Of a stretch of 64,000 bases of DNA, positions 5,366 through 61,313 are shown one piece after another. Each line of letters opens with the position of its first letter. The first letter of the stretch is position 1. Both the position numbers and the translations under genes were made by a program. The stretch comes from Syntrophomonadaceae bacterium (GTDB lineage: Bacteria > Bacillota > Dethiobacteria > DTU022), in contig SLRT01000033.1 of NCBI GenBank assembly GCA_007130825.1, positions 489 to 64,488 on the forward strand, read 5' to 3'. Below the pieces are notes generated by a model. It was not told the origin of the DNA. It did not search any database and saw nothing but the letters and a program-made list of their open reading frames with translations.

Positions 5366-5513
5366 TACTCTTATCCAGAGTGGAGGAGGGACAGCCCCGA
5401 TGAATCCCGGCAACCGGTTCGTTTGATCACGGTGCTAATTGCTGCGGGGTGGCTAACCTCCCCCCGGGAGATGAGGGGTGCCAGGAAGGCCTCTTGATGT
5501 AGAGGCTTTTTTC
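5366..5513 (+). promoter_or_regulatory. SAM-I riboswitch (S-box) with intrinsic terminator, in the metK leader.
   Basis: CTCTTATCCAGAGTGGAGGAGGGACAGCCCCGATGAATCCCGGCAACC...GGTGCTAATTGCTGC matches the S-box consensus. A terminator hairpin GGCCTCTTGATGTAGAGGC plus TTTTTT lies at 5488-5512. Confidence 0.85.
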
Positions 5514-5753
5514 ATTTACGGGTTCTGCAAAGACAAAAGCTTGGTTGGGTGGTGATTGTAAAGGGCTGTTTACCTTTATGCTATTAGCGGGCTTTGCCGA
5601 TATTTCTTTCGAGCAGCACGTTAATTGTATGCCGGTAAACCAGAGAGCTTCGTTTTTAGCAAAAACTACAGCGGAACCGCCGTTAAAAAGGCTAACTGTT
5701 GAGCGACAGATTAATTGCAGGGTTGTATTGCAAAATTATAGGAGGAGAACTAA

Positions 5754-6956
5754 ATGCACCAAAAAAACTATCTATTTTCTTCAGAATCAGTAACCGAGGG
5801 GCATCCGGATAAACTTGCCGACCAGATTTCCGATGCAATTCTCGATGCCATTATGGAGCAGGATCCAAATGGGCGGGTAGCCGCAGAAACAATGCTTACT
5901 ACCGGCTTGGTCCTGGTTTGCGGTGAAATAACCACTGAATGCTATGTTGATATTCCCAAACTGGTCAGGGATAAAGTAAAAGATATCGGCTATACAAGGG
6001 CTAAATATGGTTTTGACGGTGACACCTGCGCGGTGCTTACTTCGATCGATGAGCAGTCACCGGATATTGCCCAGGGTGTTAATGAAGCTTATGAAGTCAG
6101 GAGTAAAAAACAAAAAGATCAGTATGACCTTGTCGGGGCCGGTGATCAGGGGATTATGTTCGGATATGCCTGCGAAGAAACTCCTGAATTGATGCCGATG
6201 CCAATTGCGTTGGCCCATAAGATGGCACAAAGACTGTCCGAGGTGCGCAAAAAAGAAATACTCGACTACTTAAGGCCGGACGGTAAAACCCAGGTCACTG
6301 TGGTCTATAAAAATGGAGAACCTGCCTACCTGGAAAATGTCGTGGTCGCCGCGCACCACAGCGATGAAGTTTCCCTGGAGCAAATAGAAAAGGACCTCGT
6401 TGAACATGTTGTCCGCAAGATCGTTCCTGAGGATCTGATCGTACCTGAAACCCGTTTTTTAATTAATCCGACCGGTCGTTTTGTAGTTGGCGGTCCGCAG
6501 GGTGATGCCGGCCTGACCGGACGAAAAACGATCGTCGATACATATGGTGGTTACGCAGCCCACGGTGGAGGAGCTTTTTCCGGGAAAGATCCGACTAAGG
6601 TCGACCGTTCTGCATCTTATGCGGCCCGTTATGTGGCTAAGAATATAGTGGCCGCCGGCCTGGCCTCCCGGTGCCAGTTTCAACTTGCTTATGCAATCGG
6701 CGTAGCTCACCCCGTTTCTATGATGATTGAAACTTACGATACGGAAAAAGTACCGGTCAGCGTTATTGAAGAAATGGTCAATAAGCATTTTGACCTGCGG
6801 CCGGCTGCGATTATTGACAATCTGAATTTGCGCCGTCCGATTTATCAGCAACTGGCTGCATACGGCCATTTTGGCCGTCCTGAATTAGATTTGCCCTGGG
6901 AAAGGCTGGATAAAGTAGAACAGCTTAGGGAAGCCCTTTCAACCAAGAAATCTTAA
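5754..6956 (+). CDS. metK: S-adenosylmethionine synthetase.
   Basis: [50 protein letters not shown]. Confidence 0.95.
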
Positions 6957-10837: not shown

Positions 10838-10857
10838 CGGCCATTTTAAAATGGCCG
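10838..10857. repeat. Perfect 20-bp palindrome CGGCCATTTTAAAATGGCCG just after the hpf stop.
   Basis: Read directly. It has no T-run, so it is not a classical terminator. Possible RNA hairpin or protein-binding site. Confidence 0.5.
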
Positions 10858-10883
10858 TAATTGTAACCGGAAGAGGTTTTCTT

Positions 10884-11999
10884 ATGAGCAAAGCTGTCAG
10901 TGCCGTAATTTTTGAGGGTTCTCAACCAAAAAGCCCGGTAGAAGAAATGATGGTCAAGGTTCGGCAGGCGGCCTTGCTCGATAATTTGGAAAAAATGAAC
11001 CAGGTGTCTTACTTTGACAATATCTACCTGCATACAAACCGGTCGGAACTGGTTGAGCCTGCAAAACGCCTGGGTGCGGAAGTCTGCCTGAATTATATAG
11101 CGAGACAACACTTTCATTACGGCCGGGAACTGCAGGCTGCAATCAAAAAACACAATTTGAGCAGGGTTTTTTGCTTTAACGGCGCCGGCTGTCCATTAAT
11201 TACGGTTGAAGAGTTGAACATGATTTGTTATAAATTGTTATGCCATGAGCGGTTTGTTTATACTAATAACACCCAGTCAGTGGATATGATTGCCTTTACG
11301 GTGCCTGATAATATTGCCGGTGCAGATCTTCCGGCGACAGATAACAGCCTGGCAATGACCCTGCGCGATCAGATGGGCCTTAGAATGGAATTGATGCCTC
11401 ACACACTCGGCCTTTTGTTTGATGTTGACACTCCAGCGGATGTGCTGGTTCTCGGGGCGGGGCCATTTGCCGGGCCGCATACCAGGGCAGTCCTGGATAG
11501 TTTGCAATTTGATTACAGCAACCTGGAGCAGGCCAAGGCAGTGCTTAAAGAGGAGTACGAGGACGTGGTTTTGATCGGCCGGGTTGGTGCTCCAATCATC
11601 GAACGCCTCAACGCTGTTTTAAAGTTGCGCCTGCGCGTGTTTTCCGAAGAGCGGGGCATGAAATCACTGGGCCGGATCGAAACAAAAGAGGTTGTCTCCC
11701 TGCTCGGGCTGCTGATTGACCATGCCGGCCTGGAACAATTTTTCAACTACCTGGCCCGGGTTGCCCGCTGTGCTTTCATAGATAGCCGGGTTTTGATGTA
11801 TCACTATCAGTATGATTTTCCTGATCAGTCGCGTTTTTTATCAGATCTCGGCCTGTGGACGGAAATAGAAGAGACCTGGTTGAAAGAATTTACCAGGTTG
11901 GCTGTGAATTGCCCGATTCCGGTTGTCTTGGGTGGACATTCTCTGGTTTCGGGCAGTATGTGGGCGCTTTGTAATGAACTCGACCCCGCTGCCATCTAG
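10884..11999 (+). CDS. Hypothetical protein (371 aa). It shows only weak resemblance to a MobA-like NTP-transferase fold and sits inside the conserved hpf-secA synteny.
   Basis: Long ORF with an RBS GGAAGAGG before ATG 10884. No confidently recognisable motifs, only an NGAGCPLI segment loosely like the GDxPLI of NTP transferases. Confidence 0.55.
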   Translation: MSKAVSAVIFEGSQPKSPVEEMMVKVRQAALLDNLEKMNQVSYFDNIYLHTNRSELVEPAKRLGAEVCLNYIARQHFHYGRELQAAIKKHNLSRVFCFNGAGCPLITVEELNMICYKLLCHERFVYTNNTQSVDMIAFTVPDNIAGADLPATDNSLAMTLRDQMGLRMELMPHTLGLLFDVDTPADVLVLGAGPFAGPHTRAVLDSLQFDYSNLEQAKAVLKEEYEDVVLIGRVGAPIIERLNAVLKLRLRVFSEERGMKSLGRIETKEVVSLLGLLIDHAGLEQFFNYLARVARCAFIDSRVLMYHYQYDFPDQSRFLSDLGLWTEIEETWLKEFTRLAVNCPIPVVLGGHSLVSGSMWALCNELDPAAI

Positions 12000-17432: not shown

Positions 17433-18122
17433 ATGGTCGAAGCACAAAATATGTATATGCGATATCATAAAGGTGAACAATACGCCCTGGAAAATGTAAA
17501 TTTTACTATCGATCGCAGCGAGTTTGTTTTTTTTGTCGGGTCGAGCGGCGCCGGAAAATCAACCTTGCTCAAACTGATTATTCGGGAAATACTGCCTTCC
17601 AGTGGTAAGCTGAAGGTATTTAATCGTGATGTTACCCGTTTGCCGCGGCATCGCTTACCTTACCTCAGGCGCAATATTGGGATGGTTTTTCAAGATTTTA
17701 GGTTGATGGAAGAAAGAACAGTTTATGATAATGTCGCTTTTGCAATGATTGTAATCGGTTCCTCCCGTAAGGAGATCCGGCGCAGGGTACCGCATGTTTT
17801 AAAACTGGTTGGACTGCAGGATAAGGCAAAAGTAAAAATAACAGATCTTTCCGGAGGGGAGCAGCAGCGTGTTGGATTGGCCCGGGCTATTGCCAACCGA
17901 CCGGCAATGATAATTGCTGATGAACCGACCGGCAACCTTGATCCGGGAACTGCGCTTGATATTATGAATCTACTGCATAATATAAATTTACGCGGGACCA
18001 CCGTTTTGGTAGCCACCCACAACCGCGATATTGTCGATCGTTTTAAGAAGAGGGTGTTATACTTTGAGAACGGTCAATTAGTCGGCGATGAGCTAAAGGG
18101 GATTTATTCCAATGTTCATTAG
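17433..18122 (+). CDS. ftsE: Cell division ATP-binding protein FtsE.
   Basis: ABC motifs [43 protein letters not shown]. Confidence 0.9.
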
Positions 18123-19017
18123 CAGCTTCATCTATATTTTTGGTGAAACAATTAAAGGGCTTTATCGCAACCGGTGGATGTGTATTACCTCTACCGGGGT
18201 AGTAGTGGTCACTATCTTGATGCTCGGTGTATTTATGGTCGTTAACCTGAACCTCAGCCATATTACCGAGTCGGTTAAAGAGCAGGTCGAGATAGTCGTA
18301 TGGATCGATGAAGATGCAGATCACTCGACTTTAAGTGCATTGGATGAAAAACTGTCCCGTCATGCTGAAGTAGACGAAATTAGCTATGTGTCCAGTGAAG
18401 AACATATGGGCCGCCTGCAGGAACAATTAGAAAGAGCAGGTCGAGGTAGTGGAATACTTGAGGGTTATGATACATCTTTGGACAACCCATTACTTGCTTC
18501 ATATGAAATTAAAACTGTAGTTCCCGAATTGGTCGTGACACTGGCCGATGAATTTGAAACTTACCCCGGAGTAGATGAAGTGTCTTATGGCCGGGGTTAT
18601 GTTGAAAATCTTTTTGCGGTGACCGGTGTAGTGCAGATAATCGGATTGGCCCTGATGGCCGGTCTTTCGGTAACAGCGGTATTTCTGATTTCACACACCA
18701 TCAAGCTAACTGTAATGATGCGCAAAAGGGAAATTACGATCATGAAATATGTAGGAGCCACCAATTGGTTTATTCGCTGGCCTTTTCTTTTAGAAGGCCT
18801 TTTGATGGGCTTTCTCGGGGCAGTGATACCTATGGCTTTACTGTATTATATTTACCAGCTGTCGATAGAGTGGATTGCTGCCAATGATCTTATGTTTATC
18901 AGTCCACTGCCCCTGGAGATGATCATGATTGAATTGTCCAAGTATCTTGTCCCACTGGGCACCGGGCTTGGTATGCTGGGCAGCACTTTTTCGATGGGAA
19001 GGTTTTTACGCGTATAG
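18112..19017 (+). CDS. ftsX: Cell division permease FtsX.
   Basis: Overlaps ftsE by 11 nt. N-terminal TM, a periplasmic domain and a C-terminal 3-TM FtsX fold. Confidence 0.85.
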   Translation: MFISSFIYIFGETIKGLYRNRWMCITSTGVVVVTILMLGVFMVVNLNLSHITESVKEQVEIVVWIDEDADHSTLSALDEKLSRHAEVDEISYVSSEEHMGRLQEQLERAGRGSGILEGYDTSLDNPLLASYEIKTVVPELVVTLADEFETYPGVDEVSYGRGYVENLFAVTGVVQIIGLALMAGLSVTAVFLISHTIKLTVMMRKREITIMKYVGATNWFIRWPFLLEGLLMGFLGAVIPMALLYYIYQLSIEWIAANDLMFISPLPLEMIMIELSKYLVPLGTGLGMLGSTFSMGRFLRV

Positions 19018-19026
19018 AGAGATAAA

Positions 19027-20256
19027 ATGTTATTACGCTCAGGGAGGAAAAGTATAATGATTGCCGGGAAACAGTATTGGATAGTTGCTTTCCTTTTGTC
19101 GCTAATTATTGCCGCTGTTTTCATTCTGCCGGTCTATGCTTTCACAACAGATGAAATTGATGCCAAACAGGAAGAGCTGGAGGAAGTGGAAAAGCGGCGC
19201 AGTGATCAGAAGAGCGCCCTTGAACAGCGACTGAACCATGAAGCCGCTCTTAAACAAGAGTTGAAAGAACTCGAAAATCGTATACAAGAGCTGCGAATGG
19301 AGCAGGAAAGGTTGGAGCAGGAAATTGCCGCTGTAAAAGAAGAAATCACTCACGCCGAGAGTGAACTGGCGGAAGCTGAAGAAAGACTCAGTCATCAGGA
19401 AGATCTGCTAAACCTCCGTTTAAGGGCAATCCAGCAGCATGGTGTGGTTTCCTACATCGAGGTTCTCTTTGATTCAAGCAGTTTCTCCGATTTTTTAACT
19501 CGTTTACATAATTTGAGCATTATCGCTTCAAATGATTTGCGGCTCCTTGAAGAAATTGAGGCTGAAAGAGATTTAGTTCAAGCCTGGAAGGACGAATTGG
19601 ATCAAAAAAAAGATGACCTGGAAAGCATGCACCGCCAGGTCGCTGCTAATGAAGAAGAAATAAAAGGCGCTTTAGAGGAACGCGAGCTTATCCTTGGTGA
19701 ATTACAGAAAGAGATAAACCAAAACCTGAAAGTAATTGAAGACCTGGAGGAAGAAGCCGAAAGGCTTGATTCGGAAATTCGCCGCCTAATTGCTGAAGCC
19801 GAGAGCCAGTTTAGCGGCGTTGAAGGTGAACTGCACTGGCCAATTGAACCTCCGACAACGATTACTTCAGGTTATGGCTGGCGCAGGGATCCGTTTAGTG
19901 GCAATCAGGCCTGGCATGGCGGTATTGATATTGCACCCCGCGGGGGGGCGGCCAATTATATTTTAGCAGCTGCCCTCGGCGAAGTTATTTATTCTGGTTG
20001 GAATGGTGGATATGGAAACTGTATAATGATCGATCACGGTGGCGGGACAGTTACCCTTTATGCCCACATGAGCAGCCTTTTAGTCGGAAAAGGTGATATA
20101 GTGGACCGGGGTGAACGTATTGCGCAGGCCGGCACGACCGGTTACAGCACCGGAGTCCATTTGCATTTTGAAGTGAGAGAGTACGAAAAGTCTCCGGTCC
20201 GCAATTACCCCAGCGGCTCGCCCGATCACCGCTATGATCCGATGGGATATTTTTAA
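19027..20256 (+). CDS. Coiled-coil M23 (LytM) peptidase, the likely FtsEX-controlled peptidoglycan hydrolase.
   Basis: Long coiled-coil region followed by a C-terminal M23 domain (HGGIDIA...GYSTGVHLHFEV). Confidence 0.8.
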   Translation: MLLRSGRKSIMIAGKQYWIVAFLLSLIIAAVFILPVYAFTTDEIDAKQEELEEVEKRRSDQKSALEQRLNHEAALKQELKELENRIQELRMEQERLEQEIAAVKEEITHAESELAEAEERLSHQEDLLNLRLRAIQQHGVVSYIEVLFDSSSFSDFLTRLHNLSIIASNDLRLLEEIEAERDLVQAWKDELDQKKDDLESMHRQVAANEEEIKGALEERELILGELQKEINQNLKVIEDLEEEAERLDSEIRRLIAEAESQFSGVEGELHWPIEPPTTITSGYGWRRDPFSGNQAWHGGIDIAPRGGAANYILAAALGEVIYSGWNGGYGNCIMIDHGGGTVTLYAHMSSLLVGKGDIVDRGERIAQAGTTGYSTGVHLHFEVREYEKSPVRNYPSGSPDHRYDPMGYF

Positions 20257-20283
20257 ATATCTGCTTTGTAGTAAAAGCTAACA

Positions 20284-20332
20284 ATCCAGCTATCACCGCT
20301 TTGAGATAATCCGGGATGGCTGGATATTTTTT
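20284..20332 (+). terminator. Terminator candidate after the M23 peptidase gene.
   Basis: ATCCAGC...GCTGGAT stem followed by ATTTTTT. Confidence 0.35.
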
Positions 20333-20462
20333 AGATCAGGTTTGTTAAGCTTACAGGCCCCGCGCAGTAAATACATGAGCTTTTTTTTATGTTATTATGG
20401 TTACCGGGTGTTTGAATGATGCAGCTTCAATAATAAGGTTTTCGGGGTGATGGGGGTTAAAA

Positions 20463-21950
20463 GTGATGGAAAGAACAGAAATTAAAATGCTGTATAAATG
20501 GTTGGTTATCTTTATAATTATGCTCATTGGGACGAATGCAGCTAATTATTATTTTTTTCCCGGAGGAGCTGATCCGGACCCCGTTGCTGACGAAGACTCC
20601 AAAACTATAATCAGATATGAGCCAAAAGAGCGTATGTTTGAATCCGAAACAGCAATATTTTGGGAAGCGTTGGAGTCGATCAACGATCATTACTTTTATC
20701 CCGTCGATATTGATGAACTTATCGAAGGGGCGGTTCGGGGGATGATCGATACTCTAGATGACCCCCAGGTCCGATTTTATGATCCCGGTGAACTGGAGGA
20801 ATTTCTTCTCGATACCAGGGGTTCATACGGAGGGGTCGGTATCCGTGTTATCGAAACAGACGAGGAGATCATTGTTTTTGAAGTATTTCCTGATACGCCG
20901 GCAGAAAGAAGTGGTCTAAATCCGGGAGATCTCATCTTGGAAGCTGATGGTTATACGCTGAGCGGAAAGGGTTTGGAGCGGGCCGTCGAGCTTTTACGGG
21001 GACCGAGCGATACTTCGGTTAATGTAAAGATCCAGCGGCCGGGGGCGGAAGATCCGATTGAGCTAACAATTACCAGGGAAGAAATCCAGGTGACCACGGT
21101 GTTCAGCGAAATGCTCGATGAAGGCCTGGGTTATATCAACATCACCAGTTTTGAGAGTAATACGGCCGGTGAGTTTATTGATAGCTTTCATGATCTGGAG
21201 CAAAAAGGCCTGAATAAAGGCTTAATACTGGACTTGCGCAATAATCGGGGTGGCCAGTTTGATCAGGCTGTGGCAGTGGCCAAACAGCTTGTTCCGGAGG
21301 GAGAGATTGCCAGACTGCTTGAAAGGGATCATAGTGTCAGGGAAGTATTTCATTCCAGCGCCGCGGAGAAACCTTATCTGATCGTGGTCCTGATCAATGC
21401 AGAGTCGGCCAGCGCTTCAGAGCTACTGGCCGGTGCCCTGCAGGACAGGGAAGCGGCCTACCTTGTTGGAAAAACTACTTATGGAAAAGCTTCAGTTCAG
21501 CGGCGCGTAGATCTCTCCGGCGGCAATGCCCTGATGCTAACCGTTTACAAATATTTAACTCCATCGGGGAGTAATATAGACAAACACGGGATTACCCCTG
21601 ACTTCAAAGTTGATATGCCTGAAATACTGAGCTATTACCGCTATTTCCACCCCGGCCGTCTGGACGTGGGAGACTTTGGGGCTGATGTAGAAATGTTACA
21701 GGACATACTTAAACAGCTCGGATACAAAGAAGAAAGCACCGGTTATTTCGACGAACAAACTTCGCAGGCTATTTCTGATTTTCAGCTGGATGCGGGAATT
21801 GAGCCCAGCGGGGTGTTTGATGATGTGACCTGGGTTGAGTTACGCCAGGCGCTTGACATAGTTTCGCGGGAGCAGGACGAACAGCTCAACTATGCCCGTG
21901 AATTAATCGGCAAAACCGACCTGGGGAACAAAGTTGGAGGAAATGAATAA
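20463..21950 (+). CDS. S41 carboxyl-terminal processing protease (CtpA/CtpB-like) with PDZ and a C-terminal peptidoglycan-binding domain.
   Basis: PDZ (GLNPGDLILEADG), S41 catalytic region, and a C-terminal PG_binding_1-like repeat (LQDILKQLGY...DFQLDAGI). Confidence 0.85.
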   Translation: MMERTEIKMLYKWLVIFIIMLIGTNAANYYFFPGGADPDPVADEDSKTIIRYEPKERMFESETAIFWEALESINDHYFYPVDIDELIEGAVRGMIDTLDDPQVRFYDPGELEEFLLDTRGSYGGVGIRVIETDEEIIVFEVFPDTPAERSGLNPGDLILEADGYTLSGKGLERAVELLRGPSDTSVNVKIQRPGAEDPIELTITREEIQVTTVFSEMLDEGLGYINITSFESNTAGEFIDSFHDLEQKGLNKGLILDLRNNRGGQFDQAVAVAKQLVPEGEIARLLERDHSVREVFHSSAAEKPYLIVVLINAESASASELLAGALQDREAAYLVGKTTYGKASVQRRVDLSGGNALMLTVYKYLTPSGSNIDKHGITPDFKVDMPEILSYYRYFHPGRLDVGDFGADVEMLQDILKQLGYKEESTGYFDEQTSQAISDFQLDAGIEPSGVFDDVTWVELRQALDIVSREQDEQLNYARELIGKTDLGNKVGGNE

Positions 21951-21953
21951 CCG

Positions 21954-23330
21954 ATGCAGCCATTACTTGAAATAAGCCAGATATTTATCACTACGTTCCT
22001 GTTTGCTTTTATCATGCCCATTTTCTGGATAGTGCTGTTTTTGGTTTACCTGCAATACAGACGCCAGGCTGCCACTGAAAAGCAACTTTTTGGACGAAGT
22101 ATAAACGGGGTTGGCAAACAAATGTTTATGTCGATTGGGCTGGGACTTGTGGGCGGCTTTGCGGCCAGCGCCGTGCTGGTCTTCATGGGTCTGTCCCTGG
22201 AGCAGATAGGTCTTTATTTTATCTGGCCGGTTGCCCTGCTTTTGCTTTTGGTTAATCCCCGCTATTTGTGCTTTTCTTATGCCGGTGGTATTGTTGCTGC
22301 AATGGTTTTGCTTGCCCGCTATATTATAGTTCCCCTGTTTCCAGTTTTATCGGAAAATGTTGTTTTTGAATCACTGCTTAGAATTCATATTCCGGCTTTA
22401 TTGGTGTTGATCGGGCTGCTTCATTTGATTGAGGCCATGTTAATTTATTGCGGCGGACACTGGGGGAGCAGTCCGGTATACCTGAAGAAAGATGATGGCG
22501 AAGTGGTTGGTGCATTTTCGTTGCAGCGTTTTTGGCCACTGCCTCTGGTGGCTTTGCTGGCTACTGTAGTTGCGCAGCCTGAAATTGTGGGAGTCAGCAT
22601 GCCGGAATGGTGGCCGATTCTCCAAACAACCCTGCAGCCCGGGGAGGGTGAAAGCCTGCAGTATATGATCGTACCGGTAGCGGCCGGTCTTGGTTATGGT
22701 GATATGGTTATTTCTTCGACTCCCCGTGAAAGGACCACTTTTTCAGCCAAACACCTGGCTTTTTACAGCCTGGCGCTTCTTATCCTGGCTGTCGGGTCGG
22801 AGTTTTTTTCGCCACTCGTCCTGCTTGGTGTGATTTTTGCTCCCCTGGGCCACGAAATGTTGATTTTGTATGGAAAAAAGAAAGAGGAAAGCCGACCACC
22901 ACGCTATCGTCAGGGAGAAGCTGGAGTGACCTTAATGATGGTATTACCGGGAACTTCTGCTTGTGAATCCGGCTTACTTCAAGACGATGTGATTCTTCGA
23001 GTTAACGGTGATCCGGTAACTGACAACCGGGATCTTCTTGAAAAGATTGAGGCCAGTTATTTTATGGTTTTTTTGGAAGGGGCCCGCGGCGGTAAACCGT
23101 TTTCTGTGGTATTGAAAAAAAAGACCAGGGAAGAATTAAATGGTAAAGATTCTTTTCCTGACAGGTTAAAATCATCCCGTTTAAGTTATTCGCTGTTACA
23201 CCGCAGTACAGAGTTAGGGCTGATTCCAGTTCCTGCTTCGGATTCGGGCGTTTATCTCGAACTTCGCAAACCGGATCCTTTAGCTGGATTTAAACGCTTA
23301 CGGCAAAAAATTAAGAGGGTAAGCATATGA
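21954..23330 (+). CDS. Polytopic membrane protein with a C-terminal PDZ domain. It is S2P-like but has no HExxH motif.
   Basis: About 8 predicted TM helices and a PDZ-like segment VLPGTSACESGLLQDDVILRVNGDPV. No metalloprotease motif was found. Confidence 0.55.
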   Translation: MQPLLEISQIFITTFLFAFIMPIFWIVLFLVYLQYRRQAATEKQLFGRSINGVGKQMFMSIGLGLVGGFAASAVLVFMGLSLEQIGLYFIWPVALLLLLVNPRYLCFSYAGGIVAAMVLLARYIIVPLFPVLSENVVFESLLRIHIPALLVLIGLLHLIEAMLIYCGGHWGSSPVYLKKDDGEVVGAFSLQRFWPLPLVALLATVVAQPEIVGVSMPEWWPILQTTLQPGEGESLQYMIVPVAAGLGYGDMVISSTPRERTTFSAKHLAFYSLALLILAVGSEFFSPLVLLGVIFAPLGHEMLILYGKKKEESRPPRYRQGEAGVTLMMVLPGTSACESGLLQDDVILRVNGDPVTDNRDLLEKIEASYFMVFLEGARGGKPFSVVLKKKTREELNGKDSFPDRLKSSRLSYSLLHRSTELGLIPVPASDSGVYLELRKPDPLAGFKRLRQKIKRVSI

Positions 23331-44073: not shown

Positions 44074-44424
44074 GGGGGCGTAAGGATTCGACGAGGGTTG
44101 TGGAAGCAGAAGTGGCAAGCCCAGGACCATGCCCTGGATAAAACATGGAACGGCTATAAACGCCAAACCTAATTACGCACTCGCTGCTTAAATAAGCAGC
44201 GCATCTCTCCTTTCCCTGGCCGGGGGAAAGGTAAGGGGTGTCAAAAAACCGGCCTACCAAAGCAGCGGTTGTCTCTCCGCTGTTTTGGGAAATTTAAAGG
44301 GACTGGCGCTCAAAGATCTTGTTTCGGGGAGCTTTGGGCGCGAGAAACAAAACCGGAACTAAGCTTGTAGAAACTTCTGCAGCCGGGCCCTCGGACGCGG
44401 GTTCGATTCCCGCCGCCTCCACCA
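44074..44424 (+). ncRNA. ssrA: Transfer-messenger RNA (tmRNA, SsrA).
   Basis: 5' GGGGGCGTAAGGATTCGACG and 3' GGTTCGATTCCCGCCGCCTCCACCA form the tRNA-Ala-like domain with a G3-U pair. The internal tag ORF ends ...PNYALAA-TAA. It lies immediately downstream of smpB. Confidence 0.9.
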
Positions 44425-44549: not shown

Positions 44550-44625
44550 GGGCGTGTAGCTCAGCTGGGAGAGCACTTGGCTCGCACTCAAGAGGTCAGG
44601 GGTTCGAGTCCCCTCACGTCCACCA
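44550..44625 (+). tRNA. tRNA-Ala (anticodon CGC).
   Basis: Manual cloverleaf: acceptor GGGCGTG/CACGTCC with the G3-U70 Ala identity pair, anticodon loop CTCGCAC, T-loop TTCGAGT, and an encoded CCA. A TATAAT box lies upstream. Confidence 0.85.
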
Positions 44626-44696: not shown

Positions 44697-46118
44697 ATGA
44701 ATATATGTAAATCCAGGCACCCTTTGAGCATTATCCTGGTGGTGGTTATGGTAATAGCCCTGGGTGTCATGCTTTCTGCTTGTGATGGCGGTGCCGATGA
44801 CGTCGAGGGCGCCATAAACATTCCCGATGACTATTCGACCATTCAAGGAGCAATTGATGCCGCAGAAGAGGGCGATGTAATCGTGGTCAGCCCCGGAACA
44901 TACAGGGAAAATATCAATTTTGGCGGAAAGAATATAACTTTGCGCAGTACTGATCCGGAGGATCCGGAAGTCAGGGAGCAGACAGTGATTGACGGCGGCA
45001 GAACCGGTTCGGTGGTTGTCTTTGAAAATGGAGAAGGTGAAGAAGCGGTTATATCAGGCTTTACCATAACCGGCGGGGGTGGAAACCCGGAAACACTGGA
45101 GTTTGAAATTGAAGGTGAAGTCCGGGAAGAGGCTGCTAAATATGGTGGTGGAATGATTATCTTAAACGACAGTACTCCCACCGTTAAAAATAATTTTTTT
45201 GTCAACAACGTTGCGGAGCGGGGCGGCGGAATAATGATTCATGATTCCTCACCGCTTATCAGCAATAATATGATTAATGGCAATACCTCTACCGGTGGCG
45301 GCGGTGGGATATTTATTGCTCATTCGCCTGCTGTCAGTATTATTGATAATGATATTTCTAGAAATATAGCTCAACGCAGCGGCGGGGGAATTGCTATCAG
45401 CGGTGAGGGAGAGGAGCCCTCAAACTTCGAGGGCAACAACATTTCCGAGAATCGTGCTCAAAACGGCGGTGGCTTTTCTATTTTCGAAGCCAACCCGAAT
45501 ATAAATAACAACAATATCCTTAATAATGATTCTTCTCAAACAGGCGGGGGAATTTTTATGATGAAAGCGTCTCCGGTAATTACCGGAAATGATCTGAGTG
45601 ACAATCAATCTGATTACCGGGGTGGAGGAGTTGCCGTTTCTTTTGAATCTTCACCGGTGCTTGAAGATAATATTATTATCGGTAACAATGCTGATAATGC
45701 CGGAGGCGGATTATTAATAAATATTAATTCCACCCCGCGGTTAGAAAGAAATGTAATTTCTGACAACCGGTCCCGTAACGGTGGCGGTTTTTTGATAAGT
45801 GACGGATCGACCCCGGAGCTGGTTGATAATGAAATTACAAACAACAACGCGGAAGGTAATGGAGCCGGAATTTATGTTACGGCCTCGGCGCCGGTTATCG
45901 AGGCTAATTCTATAAGCAATAATGATGCCAGAGGTGATGGTGGAGGTATCTATGCCGTTAACGAATCAACTGTGCTCGTCACCAACAATCTTTTTGAAGG
46001 TAACCGCTCCCGTGAAGGGGCGGCAATGCATTCATCTGAAGGCGCAATCCTGGAACTAAACGATCCGGACGACAATACATACGAAGACAATGCTCCTGAT
46101 GATGTCTATGAGGAATAA
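44697..46118 (+). CDS. Lipoprotein with parallel beta-helix (PbH1/NosD-like) repeats.
   Basis: Signal peptide with lipobox LSAC, many degenerate repeats of the type NxAxxGGGI, RBS GGAGG. Confidence 0.75.
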   Translation: MNICKSRHPLSIILVVVMVIALGVMLSACDGGADDVEGAINIPDDYSTIQGAIDAAEEGDVIVVSPGTYRENINFGGKNITLRSTDPEDPEVREQTVIDGGRTGSVVVFENGEGEEAVISGFTITGGGGNPETLEFEIEGEVREEAAKYGGGMIILNDSTPTVKNNFFVNNVAERGGGIMIHDSSPLISNNMINGNTSTGGGGGIFIAHSPAVSIIDNDISRNIAQRSGGGIAISGEGEEPSNFEGNNISENRAQNGGGFSIFEANPNINNNNILNNDSSQTGGGIFMMKASPVITGNDLSDNQSDYRGGGVAVSFESSPVLEDNIIIGNNADNAGGGLLININSTPRLERNVISDNRSRNGGGFLISDGSTPELVDNEITNNNAEGNGAGIYVTASAPVIEANSISNNDARGDGGGIYAVNESTVLVTNNLFEGNRSREGAAMHSSEGAILELNDPDDNTYEDNAPDDVYEE

Positions 46119-50187: not shown

Positions 50188-50262
50188 GGGGACGTAGCTC
50201 AGTGGGAGAGCGCTTGATTCACATTCAAGAGGCCGTGGGTTCAAAACCCTCCGTCCCCACCA
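50188..50262 (+). tRNA. tRNA-Val (anticodon CAC).
   Basis: Manual cloverleaf: acceptor GGGGACG/CGTCCCC, anticodon stem CTTGA/TCAAG with loop TTCACAT, T-loop TTCAAAA, encoded CCA. There is one U-U mismatch in the T-stem. Confidence 0.75.
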
Positions 50263-56195: not shown

Positions 56196-56898
56196 CAAGC
56201 ATAATTTAAAACCGGTAAACACCGATCAGACCTTTCAATCTACTTTAATTATAAAATAACGGGCTCTAATCACTTATCAAAATTCTTACTATTGTTGTTC
56301 AGCTCCCAAATTTCTTATATTTACAGCAAAAACAATTTTGTAATTGTATGGTTATTTAAAGGGATAAGCCGGCTAAAGAATCAAAGTTTGAAGGTATTGA
56401 ACCGGAACTGTTGCAGCTGGACCAGGATTTATATGAACAGGATTTCTAGTATATGAAGGCAGGATCGCGCAGGAACCCGGTATTTAAAGGTTTTATGGTT
56501 GTTTTTAGGAACCGGTGTTATAAATTCCCGCTAGTTATAGTCAACAAGAAATGGCTCCGTCTTGGCGATATGGCGGCCAGGGCCCAGGTAATTAATGTTA
56601 AAGACTATTGCTGAGGAAAGTGAATAAACAAAGGCATTATCAATTGTAATCGAAAAGCGGGCAAGAAGTTGCCGGATATTTCGTTTGGATATTCTTTCAG
56701 GCGCCGGGCGCTTATTGATCTATCCATTAGCTTCAGGGCATGCTTACATCACCAGGCACAACCTGCTAAGCGGTAATAAAGTCCTTAAAGGCTGGGTGGT
56801 TTCCGGCAAGTAAGCAGTCCTGGAAGTGACAGTAAGTGCTGGTAGTAAAACTGTTTGCACTGTGTATTAAGATATTTAGTTGTTTGGGGGGAGCAGCA

Positions 56899-57759
56899 GT
56901 GGATAATAAATCAACAGGCCCCGCTAAAAGCGGATCACCGGGGCTGGCGGGAAGAAAAGTTCTTTTTATTATTGTGCCTGTCACCATCTTTATTGTTTTA
57001 CTGTCCGGTAATATTTTTTTGCTAAGCGAGAGAGCAGAAAATGAAATAATGCTTGCAAAGCTAAACGAAAAATTGGAAGATGTAAATGAGGACAAAGCAT
57101 CGCTTGAAGATGACATTGAAGCATTGAAAAAAGAGATGTGCGCAATTAAAGCAGAAGAAGAGGTAAAGAAAGAAAAAGAGGAAATATTTGAGTTGGAGGG
57201 TCTGGTGGAAGTAAGGGATTTTGATGCCACTATTGAGGTTAATCTGCTTTACGCCTCGGAAGAGAACTTTACGGGGCAGCAGCTATATCCGGTGGAGGTT
57301 TGCCTTTTGCAAAGGGGCACTGCTGAAAAACTGGCTGCTGCAAATGATCAGTTTGCCAAAGACGGTTATCGCCTGAAAATCTGGGATGCTTACCGGCCCC
57401 TGGGCGTGCAAAAGAAATTATGGGAGTATATGCCAAACGGCATATACGTGGCTGACCCGGAAGTAGGTTCAAATCACAACCGCGGCGCTGCTGTTGATGT
57501 CACCCTGGTCGATGAAAAGGGCGAGAAATTAAAGATGCCCACCTGTTTCGATGTTTTTACAGCAGAGGCCTCGCGCAGTTATCCGGATATGCCTGAAGAA
57601 GCCAGGAATAATATGGAGTACCTGACTGAAGTAATGGTTAGAAACGGTTTTACAACCATTGAAAGTGAATGGTGGCATTTTAATGATGCTGATGTCGGAA
57701 AATATGCACTGCAGGACCTTGCTTTGGAGGAATTTGTCAACGAATACTTTTCCCGGTGA
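56899..57759 (+). CDS. M15D D-Ala-D-Ala dipeptidase (VanX-like) with an N-terminal membrane anchor and coiled coil.
   Basis: YRPLGVQKKLWEY, SNHNRGAAVDVTL, EWWHF motifs. GTG 56899 with RBS GGGGGGA. The track starts at 56836. Confidence 0.8.
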   Translation: MDNKSTGPAKSGSPGLAGRKVLFIIVPVTIFIVLLSGNIFLLSERAENEIMLAKLNEKLEDVNEDKASLEDDIEALKKEMCAIKAEEEVKKEKEEIFELEGLVEVRDFDATIEVNLLYASEENFTGQQLYPVEVCLLQRGTAEKLAAANDQFAKDGYRLKIWDAYRPLGVQKKLWEYMPNGIYVADPEVGSNHNRGAAVDVTLVDEKGEKLKMPTCFDVFTAEASRSYPDMPEEARNNMEYLTEVMVRNGFTTIESEWWHFNDADVGKYALQDLALEEFVNEYFSR

Positions 57760-57914: not shown

Positions 57915-58841
57915 ATGAGTAGGACGACCAAAAAAAGGTGCTTTCCACTCTGGATTATATTCATACTTGTTATTTTAGTAATTGGTTTGCCGGCGGTGTT
58001 GCTATACTCTGATATACCGGATCTTTCAAAATACGTGCTTGATGACAGCAAGCCCGAACCTGTGGACGAGCCTGATAACACTCGTGCTGAATTGGAAGAA
58101 GAAGAGCCTGGGGAGGATTACGAGCGCGAAATTTCCGATCCTTTTGAAGATGATAACCAAAAAGAGGTTGAAAACAAGATCACAGAAGAAGGTAGCGAAG
58201 ATAAAGAAGAACTTGTTAACGATAAAAACGATTCTGATCACGATCATGAATCAGATTTAAAAGTGGTTTCTGATGGAGATTACCTTTTAACCCTGGTTAC
58301 GAAAGAAACAACCCTGAAAAGTAGATATGTGCCTTCCAATCTTCAGCCGATTCCTTCTTACATGAATCCTTCTTACGACATGCAGTTACGAGAGGAAGCC
58401 CTCTGGCACTTGAAAGAATTATGGGATGCGGCCAACGAAGAGGGCGTAACTTTAAGTATTCGTTCTGCTTACCGCAGTTATGCCACTCAAAAGCGTATAT
58501 TTGAAAATTTTGCCGACCAGCATGGAGAAAAAGAAGCTAACCGGTTTAGCGCCCGGCCCGGACAGTCCGAACACCAGCTGGGCACCACGGTCGATTTTGG
58601 GGGCAGCAATGTTGATTTTTCGGCTGAGTTTGGCCAAACGGATCAAGGGCGGTGGTTAGCCGAAAATGCCCACTCCTTTGGCTTCGCTATGAGCTATCCC
58701 GAAGGTAAAGAGCATATTACCGGTTATGTCTACGAACCCTGGCATTACCGCTATATCGGGGTTGATGAGGCCGTTGAGTGGAAGGAATCGGGTCTGACGC
58801 TCAAAGAGTACTTAGAAAACCAGCCGCAGTATTTTGATTAA
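57915..58841 (+). CDS. M15B D-alanyl-D-alanine carboxypeptidase (VanY-like) with an N-terminal membrane anchor and an acidic linker.
   Basis: SAYRSYATQ, SEHQLGTTVDF, EPWHYRY motifs. Confidence 0.8.
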   Translation: MSRTTKKRCFPLWIIFILVILVIGLPAVLLYSDIPDLSKYVLDDSKPEPVDEPDNTRAELEEEEPGEDYEREISDPFEDDNQKEVENKITEEGSEDKEELVNDKNDSDHDHESDLKVVSDGDYLLTLVTKETTLKSRYVPSNLQPIPSYMNPSYDMQLREEALWHLKELWDAANEEGVTLSIRSAYRSYATQKRIFENFADQHGEKEANRFSARPGQSEHQLGTTVDFGGSNVDFSAEFGQTDQGRWLAENAHSFGFAMSYPEGKEHITGYVYEPWHYRYIGVDEAVEWKESGLTLKEYLENQPQYFD

Positions 58842-58989
58842 CCCGGGTTCTTGTAGTTTGGCTCAACCTGTAATTGTTTATTAATACTTGCAATTTAGAG
58901 AAGAATACCTTATTATTGTCTTTAGAATGAAATGTGTTGATGATGGAACGAATGTCTTATAATTAATGATCTATTTAGGAGGTTTTATT

Positions 58990-59346
58990 ATGACTAACGG
59001 AATGCAGTTAAGCCAGGATGATAAAACGTTTGGAATGCTGGCTCATCTCGCGGCCCTGGCCGGATTTGTAATTCCTTTTGGCAACCTTATCGGCCCGCTG
59101 ATAGTCTGGTTAATGAAAAAAGACCAGTCTTCATGGGTTGATAAGCAGGGCAAGGAATCATTAAATTTCCAAATCAGTGTGAGCATCTATGCTATTGTTG
59201 CCGGTATCCTGACTCTTATACTTATCGGGATTTTATTACTGATTGCAGTGGGCATATTTTCCCTGGTTATGATCATTATCGCCTCTGTCAGGGTAAGCAA
59301 TGGAGAGGATTTTAAATATCCACTCAGTATTCCATTTATCAAATAA
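58990..59346 (+). CDS. DUF4870 family membrane protein.
   Basis: AHLAALAGFVIPFGNLIGPLIVWLMKKD signature. RBS TAGGAGG before ATG 58990. Confidence 0.75.
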   Translation: MTNGMQLSQDDKTFGMLAHLAALAGFVIPFGNLIGPLIVWLMKKDQSSWVDKQGKESLNFQISVSIYAIVAGILTLILIGILLLIAVGIFSLVMIIIASVRVSNGEDFKYPLSIPFIK

Positions 59347-59537
59347 CTGGCAGTTACTAGATCCTAATTTCAAAAAAAGGATAGGCTTAAAAAAACCTTT
59401 AACCTGTCCTTTTTGTAACTCTAAAGCGCTATTTGTTCAAAATAAAGCTCTACATTTCCGGGTGACTTGGCAAAATATTTTTGACGGTCTGATCTTAATT
59501 ATGATCTGGTCAAACCGGAAAAAGGAGTGTTTTTAAC

Positions 59538-61313
59538 ATGCAAAAAATAGTTCTAATTGAACCGCAATCGAAAGAAGACCATGTCTATAAACATGTGCGT
59601 ATGCCCCGACTGGGTCTTCCTCTTCTGGGTACTCAGCTGCAGGAAGCGGGCTATGAAGTCAATTTTTACCTCGGAACAGGTGATTCTCTGCCCTGGTCGA
59701 ATATTTTTAAGGCTGACCTGGTAGGGATTTCAACTACAACAGCTACTTGTCGAGAGGGTTATCAGATTGCCGGGCTACTGCGAGCCAATAACATTCCGGT
59801 GGTCATCGGCGGGATTCATGCCTCTTTTATGCCCGATGAAGCCGTACAGTTTGCCGATTATATTGTCCGGGGTGAAGCGGAGTATAGTTTCCTGCCCCTG
59901 GTCCGCTCCATTGAAGCCGGGGAGCTTCCACAAGATATCCCCGGTGTTTCTTACTGGGTGGATGGTGAACCGGTGCATAATCCACCGGAACAATTCAAGG
60001 TGGACATGGATACAATTCCCATCCCCGATCTCACTTTGATGGAAAAATCTTCATCAATGCGTACCATTCCGGTAATGACTTCACGAGGTTGCCCTTATAA
60101 CTGCACTTTTTGCTGTGTTACCCAGATGTTTGGCCGCCGCTATCGCTACCGTTGTACGGAAAGCATCCTGGAAGAACTGGCCCAATATGAAGGAAAGCAT
60201 ATATTTTTCTGTGATGATAATTTTGTTGCCGATCCCAAACATAGCAGAGAACTGTTAAGGGAAATGATCGATCGGAATATTAACCTGAAAGGATTTGGAG
60301 CGCAGGTCCGGGCTGATGCCGCTTTCGATGATGAATTGATGGAGCTGATGACCCGGGCGGGTTGCAGTATTGTTTATATCGGTTTTGAATCGATTAATCC
60401 TGAAACACTGAAAGGATATAACAAACAGCAGTCTGTTGATGATATTAAAGAATCGATTCGCCGTTTCCACGAGTACGGTATTAGAATTCACGGTATGTTT
60501 GTATTTGGTGGCGATGCCGATACCGCAGATACGATCAGGGAAACTGCTGACTTTGCTCTGGAAGCCAAGATTGACAGTATTCAGTTTATGATGCTTACTC
60601 CTATGCCGGGCACTCCCCTTTATGAGCAATTGGAAAGCGAAGGCAGGATCATTACTTACGACTGGTCGCTTTACGAAGGCCAGCATGCTGTTTTTAAACC
60701 GGTTATGATCTCTCCCGAAGATCTGCAGAATGAAACAGTTAAAGCGTTAAAAAAGTTTTATTCACTTACTAACATATTTGACAATGTTACCACCACCGGT
60801 TGGGCATCTGCACTCCACCGGGCAATCGGATGGGGTTTAACCAGGCATTTTGCGTACCAAAACCGCTGGTTTGTTCAATTTCTCAAAAACCAGCAATATG
60901 CCAACCCCCAGCCGGTTACTCTTTTTGAACATTTGCTGCAGGTTCCTGATAAAGCTGACCGAACATCGCAAACAACCACTTCGCCGCTTAAAGTATCGCT
61001 CACAGAGCAACAAGGGGTATTATACCTCAAGTTAAAGGGGTTTGCCGGCAGCTTGCATCTAAGGGAATTAAAACGGACGCTAAAAAAACTTCCCCGCCAC
61101 TGCAGCCAGATGGTTGTCAATACTGAAGGCCTGCGTTTTGTATCCGAAAAAACAGCAGCCGGTTTTGCCGCTTATCTAGAAAAACTCGGTTCCAGGGTGC
61201 GCCGGCTGCAGGTAATAACTGCTGCCGAAAAACAGGCCCGCATTTTCCTAAACTGGAAAAGAAAAAGCCGTATCAAGCTTCCGCGCTTCGAAGTCCGGGT
61301 TTACAAACACTGA
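59538..61313 (+). CDS. B12-binding-domain radical SAM protein (class B) with a C-terminal STAS-like extension.
   Basis: N-terminal cobalamin-binding Rossmann-like region (VVIGGIHASF), CPYNCTFC radical SAM cluster motif. The C-terminal segment of about 110 aa (LKVSLTEQQGVLYLKLKGFAGSLHLRELKRTLKKL...MVVNTEGLRFVSEKTAAGFAAYLEKL) has the SpoIIAA/STAS pattern. Confidence 0.8.
   Translation: MQKIVLIEPQSKEDHVYKHVRMPRLGLPLLGTQLQEAGYEVNFYLGTGDSLPWSNIFKADLVGISTTTATCREGYQIAGLLRANNIPVVIGGIHASFMPDEAVQFADYIVRGEAEYSFLPLVRSIEAGELPQDIPGVSYWVDGEPVHNPPEQFKVDMDTIPIPDLTLMEKSSSMRTIPVMTSRGCPYNCTFCCVTQMFGRRYRYRCTESILEELAQYEGKHIFFCDDNFVADPKHSRELLREMIDRNINLKGFGAQVRADAAFDDELMELMTRAGCSIVYIGFESINPETLKGYNKQQSVDDIKESIRRFHEYGIRIHGMFVFGGDADTADTIRETADFALEAKIDSIQFMMLTPMPGTPLYEQLESEGRIITYDWSLYEGQHAVFKPVMISPEDLQNETVKALKKFYSLTNIFDNVTTTGWASALHRAIGWGLTRHFAYQNRWFVQFLKNQQYANPQPVTLFEHLLQVPDKADRTSQTTTSPLKVSLTEQQGVLYLKLKGFAGSLHLRELKRTLKKLPRHCSQMVVNTEGLRFVSEKTAAGFAAYLEKLGSRVRRLQVITAAEKQARIFLNWKRKSRIKLPRFEVRVYKH

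Follow-up and report, generated by a model that had tools for sequence, protein, structure and literature searches.

The window considered here, i.e., the whole stretch of DNA that was analysed, covers 64 kb of a Syntrophomonadaceae bacterium (assembly GCA_007130825.1, contig SLRT01000033.1, positions 489 to 64,488), and the coordinates given for its features are window positions. Near its end, at 59538..61313 on the forward strand, lies a gene for a protein of 591 residues that begins as a cobalamin (B12)-binding radical S-adenosylmethionine (SAM) enzyme and ends in a STAS domain, which has the fold of the anti-sigma factor antagonist SpoIIAA. Both parts of this fusion are well known; their combination is effectively unannotated. 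The preliminary description of this DNA had not recognised the fusion as a described architecture, and in the searchable literature, as far as titles and abstracts tell, no description of a radical SAM-STAS fusion was found.

As for the gene itself, the list of open reading frames (ORFs) confirms exactly the 591-residue frame reported before, starting with ATG. A ribosome-binding site, AAAGGAG, can be read from the sequence at 59521..59527 (+), 10 nt before the ATG, and sites of the GGAG type occur at the equivalent upstream place in most homologues. The identical protein has been called on a public contig of a metagenome-assembled genome (MAG), PWFD01000011.1 (GCA_003553735.1). The gene appears to stand alone.

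The catalytic body comes first in the protein. Residues 22-118 (59601..59891, +) are the cobalamin-binding domain, of the Rossmann type, with a match to the B12-binding family PF02310 of 50.3 bits against a cutoff of 32.1. Residues 181-340 (60078..60557, +) are the radical SAM core, where PF04055 reaches 81 bits against a cutoff of 29.5. With both Pfam matches above their cutoffs, the earlier reading of a CPYNCTFC-bearing radical SAM core preceded by a cobalamin-binding domain holds. The motif, C185-P-Y-N-C189-T-F-C192 (60090..60113, +), serves the [4Fe-4S] cluster and SAM, and its three cysteines are invariant in a family alignment of 37 sequences. The structural side is in line with this picture: the full-length AlphaFold model has a predicted local distance difference test score (pLDDT) of 83 and a predicted template modelling score (pTM) of 0.78, and its best Foldseek matches are all class B enzymes, namely TsrM, MgmA, AprD4, CysS, OxsB, and TokK (E 4e-23 to 2e-18). 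The closest sequence in the PDB is that of MgmA (9ccb, E 5.9e-17), and TsrM is found at E 3.5e-16. By sequence and model, the gene is predicted to encode a class B, i.e., cobalamin-dependent, radical SAM enzyme, the use of cobalamin being part of the prediction.

Behind the core, a helical extension (residues 359-452; 60612..60893, +), delimited by Pfam and by the model, completes the catalytic body. It is common to the fused proteins and to the orthologues that lack a tail, and in the model it is closed by a long, basic helix rich in Trp and Arg at residues 422-451. The hydrophobic moment of residues 417-452 is moderate, up to 0.53, a value that does not settle the idea of an amphipathic helix. 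Then comes a linker (residues 453-483; 60894..60986, +), recognised from the alignment and from its low model confidence, with pLDDT below 50 at residues 453-459 and 471-480. Its sequence is variable, yet it holds one short conserved strand at residues 463-467, and V460 and L462 are nearly invariant.

The STAS domain follows at residues 484-589 (60987..61304, +). Is this tail really a STAS domain? In the window protein taken singly, the STAS_2 match stays below the cutoff of 29.2 bits: the full-length sequence scores 16.8 bits and the isolated tail 20.1-20.3 bits, although positions 1-74 of the 80 of the profile are covered. These scores, together with the moderate confidence of the tail model (pLDDT 74), are what speaks for another origin of the similarity, either chance or a C-terminal region of the DUF4070 type, common among B12 radical SAM enzymes. 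The relatives tell a different story. When 29 diverse homologous tails were scanned singly, 18 matched STAS_2 (E <= 0.1, best 2.5e-6) and six matched PF01740, and no family besides STAS recurred among them. DUF4070 (PF13282) gives a weak match of 15.9 bits against a cutoff of 22, through positions 1-57 of the 144 of its profile, and this match is confined to residues 359-416; since it ends at residue 416, DUF4070 is rejected as an explanation of the tail, and no profile search assigned the C-terminus to it.

Other comparisons were made at the level of profiles and of the fold. A profile of the tail run against the sequences of the PDB has the anti-sigma antagonists RsfB and SpoIIAA as its top four matches. 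In hhalign, the same profile aligns with canonical STAS proteins at a probability of 98.4% (E 7e-15, 85 columns); the canonical alignment consisted of nine rows, one of them Bacillus subtilis SpoIIAA, and the other rows came from database searches. The reverse search, with the tail profile against 1.84 billion representatives, returned 45 proteins at E <= 1e-3. The strongest were the radical SAM-STAS fusion or its fragments, and the next matches sampled were genuine STAS proteins, retrieved at E values down to 4e-12: tandem STAS proteins, SpoIIE-PP2C+STAS, and HATPase_c_2+SpoIIE+STAS. Finally, structure prediction gave the tail the order b1-b2-a1-b3-(short strand)-a2-b4-a3-b5, as expected of a STAS-type fold, and the model can be superposed on solved STAS structures. 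These five independent lines (family tails, PDB profile, hhalign, reverse search, and fold model) settle the identity of the tail: it is a genuine but atypical STAS domain, as had been proposed for the last ~110 residues, and the possibility that it is not STAS at all is effectively excluded, its probability being next to nil. The Pfam check had a mixed outcome, as the window protein alone stays below the STAS_2 threshold, while profile-level homology to canonical STAS is found. A practical consequence is that the architecture is invisible to standard annotation, because in nearly every member the tail scores below the Pfam threshold; among the matches listed, a precomputed STAS call (PF13466) is present on one of 120 family clusters (P0107).

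The tail is conserved in at least 120 full-length homologues, with 54-100% identity and nearly all of 580-613 residues. Its mean column identity is 53%. The STAS residues L484, G493, G501, N528, E530, G531, S536, F543, R556, Q558, and E585 do not vary or hardly vary in the alignment, and G493, G501, S536, F543, R556, Q558, and E585 count as invariant. By these sequence features, the tail is under selection. The conserved residues map to the loops b2-a1 and b3-a2, to the beginning of a2, and to b4/b5, the face with which SpoIIAA-type proteins contact their partners.

Where is the fusion found? A genome scan, in which each species was represented by a single genome, yielded 519 relatives, and the best 80 of them were retained. 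Among these 80, the fused proteins align over residues 1-586/590 and belong mostly to Syntrophomonadaceae, Dethiobacter, and unclassified Bacillota MAGs, with other taxon labels on a few of the fused records. Syntrophaceticus schinkii Sp3, at 46% identity, is one cultured organism with the fusion, and by isolate name the sources of the fused proteins include sediments, subsurface samples, and apparent anaerobic digesters. A second group of orthologues, with 43-49% identity and most of 473-530 residues, has no tail and aligns only to residues 1 to ~450. They come from Planctomycetota/Brocadiia, Armatimonadota, Zixibacteria, Thermodesulfobacteriota, Schekmanbacteria, and other phyla. The survey of homologues suggested in the preliminary description has shown, in this way, that the fusion is mostly shared within a Bacillota clade and that the orthologues from the other phyla named lack it. 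The catalytic body is an old, widespread, and uncharacterised orthologous group of anaerobes in many phyla, and the existence of orthologues with no tail makes the STAS domain an accessory part, not a catalytic one.

In a neighbour-joining tree of the catalytic body, nearly all the fused proteins form one clade with two subclades. One tail-less member (locus L052; loci of relatives are numbered in this way) is nested in it and reads as a nested loss. STAS was apparently gained once, in one Bacillota lineage of the Syntrophomonadaceae/Dethiobacter type. Other lineages carry something else at the same place. An orthologue from Planctomycetota (L085, 5998-7914 of its locus) has a LiaF/LiaI-like multi-pass membrane domain at its C-terminus in place of STAS, so that at least one orthologue is predicted, from its sequence, to be membrane-anchored. 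An orthologue from Schekmanbacteria (L077, 5893-8355, 820 residues) has the radical SAM body fused to DUF2229 (PF09989), and the orthologue L063 ends in a coiled coil. The C-terminus of the body is an attachment site for localisation or partner modules, and STAS is the Bacillota version.

Given that the tail is STAS, one can ask whether it works like SpoIIAA, beginning with the phosphorylation site. HMMER comparisons with SpoIIAA and RsfB from the PDB, MAFFT, for which the register was set against canonical 'YISSAG' STAS proteins, and hhalign agree in aligning F534-V535-S536-E537 with F55-M56-D57-S58 of SpoIIAA. Ser536-Glu537 (61143..61148, +) stand at the N-terminus of helix a2, which in the model starts at residue 537, so that S536 directly precedes it. 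Among ~154 non-redundant tails, position 537, the equivalent of SpoIIAA Ser58, is Glu in 93, Asp in 35, and Ser in four, i.e., acidic in 128 (83%). Position 536, the equivalent of Asp57, is Ser in 145 and Thr in six (98%), and is never Asp or Asn. A phosphorylatable Ser is not what is found at the second place of the canonical Asp-Ser pair; a Ser or Thr stands one residue earlier. In SpoIIAA, changing the phosphorylated Ser to Asp mimics the phosphorylated state, which does not bind the kinase. On this sequence evidence, the tail would be either a non-substrate that already bears an acidic residue where SpoIIAA is phosphorylated, or a substrate whose acceptor is shifted by one residue.

The second option leads to the mechanism that had been put forward for this protein, partner switching. 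In its classical form, an unlinked kinase of the RsbW/SpoIIAB type and a PP2C phosphatase would phosphorylate and dephosphorylate the tail at Ser536, and one of the two states would bind the kinase or an anti-sigma factor; as an outcome, a stress or sporulation pathway would switch the enzyme, or the state of the enzyme would feed into sigma-factor control. Several observations fit. The closest relatives of the tail, in sequence and in fold, are the anti-sigma antagonists of such modules, and the non-fusion matches of its profile include SpoIIE+STAS and HATPase_c_2+SpoIIE+STAS proteins. The canonical kinase-binding face carries the conserved residues, and 151 of the ~154 tails have Ser or Thr at position 536, directly before helix a2. 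In one Bacillota MAG (L025), a canonical stand-alone STAS gene (5388-5690, PF01740 at 50.5 bits, motif FIDASGLG) lies ~310 bp upstream of the fusion; in none of the 84 other loci compared was such a neighbour observed.

The same mechanism meets a difficulty in the Glu or Asp, instead of Ser, that all alignments place at the phospho-acceptor position, and in the basic tail, to be compared with canonical STAS controls that are mostly acidic or neutral. Partner proteins are another difficulty. The 64-kb window yielded neither a HATPase_c_2 kinase nor a PP2C phosphatase, and HATPase_c_2 and SpoIIE probes in the 85 loci, single-sequence probes of limited sensitivity applied to ~10 kb around each gene, gave only one weak SpoIIE-like ORF (L058), ~4 kb from the gene. 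It is common for the genes of partner switching to be unlinked. On balance, partner switching is not supported by these results and is considered unlikely, the conserved Ser/Thr536 being the feature that keeps it under discussion.

The charge of the tail deserves a closer look. In the window protein, its 108 residues contain 25 Lys and Arg and seven Asp and Glu, while the body (residues 1-450) has a net charge of -17. Over 150 fused proteins, the tail has a median net charge of +14 and a median isoelectric point (pI) of 10.95; the median for the body is -9. Six of nine canonical STAS controls have a pI of 4.45-6.9. Nearly every member, with or without a tail, also has a basic segment at 410-483 (linker included), its net charge being +1 to +17 among the members listed, with a median of +7 in the fused proteins. 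The divergent fused subclade L050-L062, which includes Syntrophaceticus, has tails that are near-neutral, from -2 to +7, and because of this the charge cannot be a universal mechanism.

Could the basic STAS domain simply fold back on the acidic body? In that case it would be an intramolecular regulator that gates the access of substrate or reductant, and a ligand or a partner would relieve the autoinhibition. The opposite charges of body and tail are what one would expect of such a device, they are connected by a tether of low confidence that contains a conserved short strand, and the pTM of the full-length model suggests a defined overall arrangement. The near-neutral tails of the divergent subclade do not agree with it, nor does the fact that the pLDDT of the STAS domain is no higher in the full-length model than in the model of the isolated tail. 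Intramolecular regulation is therefore regarded as improbable.

The role that we prefer for the STAS tail is that of a non-phosphorylated docking or targeting module. The tail keeps the canonical interaction face of STAS, consisting of the b2-a1 Gly, the N-x-E-G of the b3-a2 loop, the N-terminus of a2, and the R-x-Q of b4, and Ser-Glu takes the place of the Asp-Ser phospho-acceptor pair. Docking would tether the enzyme to a partner and in this manner set where or when it meets its substrate. In the query's subclade, where the tail is strongly basic, the favoured partner would be either an acidic protein or the membrane or another anionic surface, and the ~30-residue linker behind the body would act as the tether, probably a flexible one in view of its low model confidence. 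The proposal is made because the canonical face is kept, the phospho pair is replaced, and the tail is basic in this subclade.

How firmly can all of this be held? The architecture and its evolutionary picture are held with high confidence. The docking role is tentative, being favoured among the roles discussed and still falling short of probable, and for architecture and role taken together, a compromise figure leaves the overall reading slightly on the probable side. A number of points weigh against it. The tree was built by neighbour joining and carries no support values, and one fused protein (L065), with a tail that scores 25.9 bits on STAS_2, is an outlier outside the main fused clade. 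The search for kinases and phosphatases had the limited reach given above. A Ser/Thr536 that is 98% conserved and never Asp or Asn also fits a phospho-acceptor shifted by one residue; and the positive charge of the tail is not common to the divergent fused subclade.

A bolder possibility goes one step further: the tail would be a working element of partner switching or of carrier docking, and this would be the first radical SAM enzyme wired into STAS signalling or recruitment. Two versions fit. In the first, Ser536 is a shifted phospho-acceptor that would couple a B12/SAM enzyme to an anti-sigma kinase. In the second, the basic STAS domain would recruit an acidic carrier, similar to acyl carrier protein (ACP), or a membrane, for a substrate of the lipid type. 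We consider this possibility doubtful. If the carrier or membrane version is true, the tail-less orthologues and the fusions with DUF2229 and with the LiaF-type membrane domain would be tied to membrane-lipid modification in anaerobes.

Another question concerns the genes next door. Upstream of the radical SAM-STAS gene lie a DUF4870 membrane protein (58966-59346), an M15 peptidase of the VanY/LdcB type (57915-58841), and an M15 dipeptidase of the DdpX/VanX type (56836-57759), the two peptidases each with an N-terminal hydrophobic anchor. They are present as first described, and from their adjacency a function in the cell envelope had been suggested, in which the fusion protein would work with DUF4870 and the two D-Ala-D-Ala peptidases on the chemistry of peptidoglycan or of the envelope. 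What speaks in its favour is that these genes lie side by side, here and in a block of related loci, and that other peptidoglycan-related genes, SLT+LysM, are found near tail-less orthologues in three loci of Thermodesulfobacteriota. The comparison of loci goes in the other direction. The VanY-type gene occurs in 12 related loci and an unannotated cluster of ~123 residues, the size of DUF4870, in nine; in these close relatives the M15/VanY/DUF4870 block travels with a transketolase and a PP-loop ATPase gene, as synteny would have it. In L003, L004, and L005, and in the divergent clades, the block is absent and the neighbours are unrelated. Moreover, a gap of 192 bp and its own ribosome-binding site separate the gene from DUF4870. 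We read the neighbouring DUF4870 and M15 genes as inherited synteny and not as partners; the envelope hypothesis, with synteny as its only basis, is unsupported, and an envelope module is judged very improbable.

The same holds for other neighbours. All-against-all clustering of the ORFs of the 85 loci gave no neighbour and no operon conserved throughout the family. The largest apparent cluster of conserved neighbours (53 loci; 60255-60686 in the window, reverse strand) consists of antisense shadow ORFs that in nearly every case overlap the radical SAM gene, and these are not genes. Likewise, an ORF of 78 residues between DUF4870 and the gene (59300-59536) matches no family, is uncalled on the public contig, and is probably spurious. 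Recurrent neighbours follow the synteny of subclades (transketolase, VanY, PP-loop ATPase, flavin mononucleotide (FMN) reductase, DUF1836, galT/galK, SLT-LysM, MoeA, and MtnA) and define no pathway. As for regulatory elements, no Rfam element at gathering threshold adjoins the gene in the window or in 10 loci, k-mer enrichment over 51 upstream regions returned the ribosome-binding site and no other shared motif, and the counts of promoter and terminator patterns are at chance level.

Some neighbours are worth recording in their own right. Across the Syntrophaceticus-type subclade, a protein of the uncharacterised family DUF1836 is encoded divergently, directly upstream (L053, 5222-5845; also L050, L054, L058, L059, and L062), and in eight loci of another subclade the divergent upstream gene is an FMN reductase or flavodoxin-like one (e.g., L033, 2472-3131). 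In loci of at least two phyla, genes resembling those for the salvage of 5'-deoxyadenosine and methylthioadenosine (the dihydroxyacetone phosphate shunt) lie near the radical SAM gene: a nucleoside phosphorylase, an isomerase of the IF-2B/MtnA type, and a class II aldolase (L004, 681-3289; L026, 523-1605; L067, 4953-5990; L069, 7396-8445; L079, 7283-8314). They may reflect the disposal of a radical SAM by-product.

The rest of the window is an ordinary stretch of core genome, with metK, recD2, comF, hpf, secA, prfB, ftsEX, uvrBAC, rapZ, whiA, rpoN, genes of glycolysis, secG, rnr, smpB, and the gene for transfer-messenger RNA (tmRNA). A SAM (S-box) riboswitch at 5368-5477 (+; 79.2 bits) lies directly upstream of metK (5754-6956, +), the gene of S-adenosylmethionine synthetase, which is a textbook arrangement. 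The tmRNA gene is found at 44074-44424 (+; 204 bits) and tRNA genes at 44550-44622 and 50188-50259; smpB and the gene of RNase R stand just upstream of tmRNA on L087, a public contig that is near-identical. From 17433 to 23330 (+) run ftsE/ftsX, a PcsB-like coiled-coil M23 peptidase, a CtpB-like S41 protease with PDZ and peptidoglycan-binding domains, and an ORF of 458 residues without a Pfam match, which together look like a cluster of cell-division or cell-wall hydrolase genes. Two more conserved ORFs lack a Pfam match, at 44697-46118 (+; 473 residues) and at 10851-11999 (+; 382 residues); the first of them precedes an ORF of 918 residues (907 on the public contig) with Wzy_C, an O-antigen ligase-like domain.

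What chemistry does the enzyme perform? The best NCBIfam equivalogs are HpnJ (TIGR03471, 154.9 bits) and BchE (TIGR02026, 145.7 bits), over residues ~4-414. Membership in either is rejected, the curated cutoffs being far higher, 577.6 and 481.35 bits. Public records label the family 'radical SAM protein', 'YgiQ', or 'anaerobic Mg-protoporphyrin IX monomethyl ester cyclase', and the last of these labels is wrongly given to its members. Most likely, the enzyme methylates an unactivated carbon or transforms it by some other radical reaction. Among the five best NCBIfam matches are four that act on lipids or on hydrophobic tetrapyrroles, and a membrane-associated or lipid-type substrate would be compatible with these matches, with the basic Trp/Arg helix, and with the fusions in L085 and L077. 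The DUF2229 of L077 may also be a hint that the family works in lipid chemistry.

Few large groups of enzymes are as poorly characterised as the radical SAM enzymes of class B, and little is known of the way in which they find their substrates or of their regulation. A STAS domain conserved in one lineage offers a handle for finding the partner or the substrate of an orphan family that is spread over anaerobic phyla. STAS domains themselves are known from the control of sigma factors, from transporters, and from lipid trafficking; if the tail described here is functional, radical enzymology joins this list.

Several known systems can be compared with the protein. With TsrM, MgmA, AprD4, CysS, OxsB, and TokK it shares an N-terminal B12 Rossmann domain followed by a radical SAM barrel with CxxxCxxC, but its identity to those class B enzymes is only 16-21%, and STAS is present in none of them. 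HpnJ and BchE have the same order of domains; no hopanoid or bacteriochlorophyll gene context was seen here. A lead, obtained by comparing descriptions only, is Mss, a synthase of membrane-spanning lipids, a radical SAM enzyme of anaerobes only, reported from Firmicutes, Armatimonadetes, the Planctomycetes-Verrucomicrobia-Chlamydiae (PVC) group, delta-proteobacteria, and candidate phyla (PMC13159169). The family resembles it in its multi-phylum spread among anaerobes, and Ger, the ether-lipid enzyme described together with Mss, contains DUF2229 (PMC13159169), the domain also present in the orthologue L077. In a review of 2026, Mss is placed among the enzymes for which auxiliary [4Fe-4S] clusters are postulated, and it is not described as B12-dependent (PMC13459092).

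On the side of the tail, stand-alone SpoIIAA, RsbV, and RsfB differ from the present case as follows: here STAS is fused to an enzyme, Ser-Glu/Asp replaces the Asp-Ser motif, the subclade of the query has a strongly basic tail, helix a4 is not modelled, and the searches of the window and the loci gave no linked kinase or phosphatase. A further comparison is with the STAS domains that dock without being phosphorylated, i.e., those of the SLC26/SulP family, such as the YchM STAS-ACP complex (PDB 3ny7), and MlaB. These are attached to transporters or act on them, whereas the host of the STAS domain described here is a soluble radical SAM enzyme.

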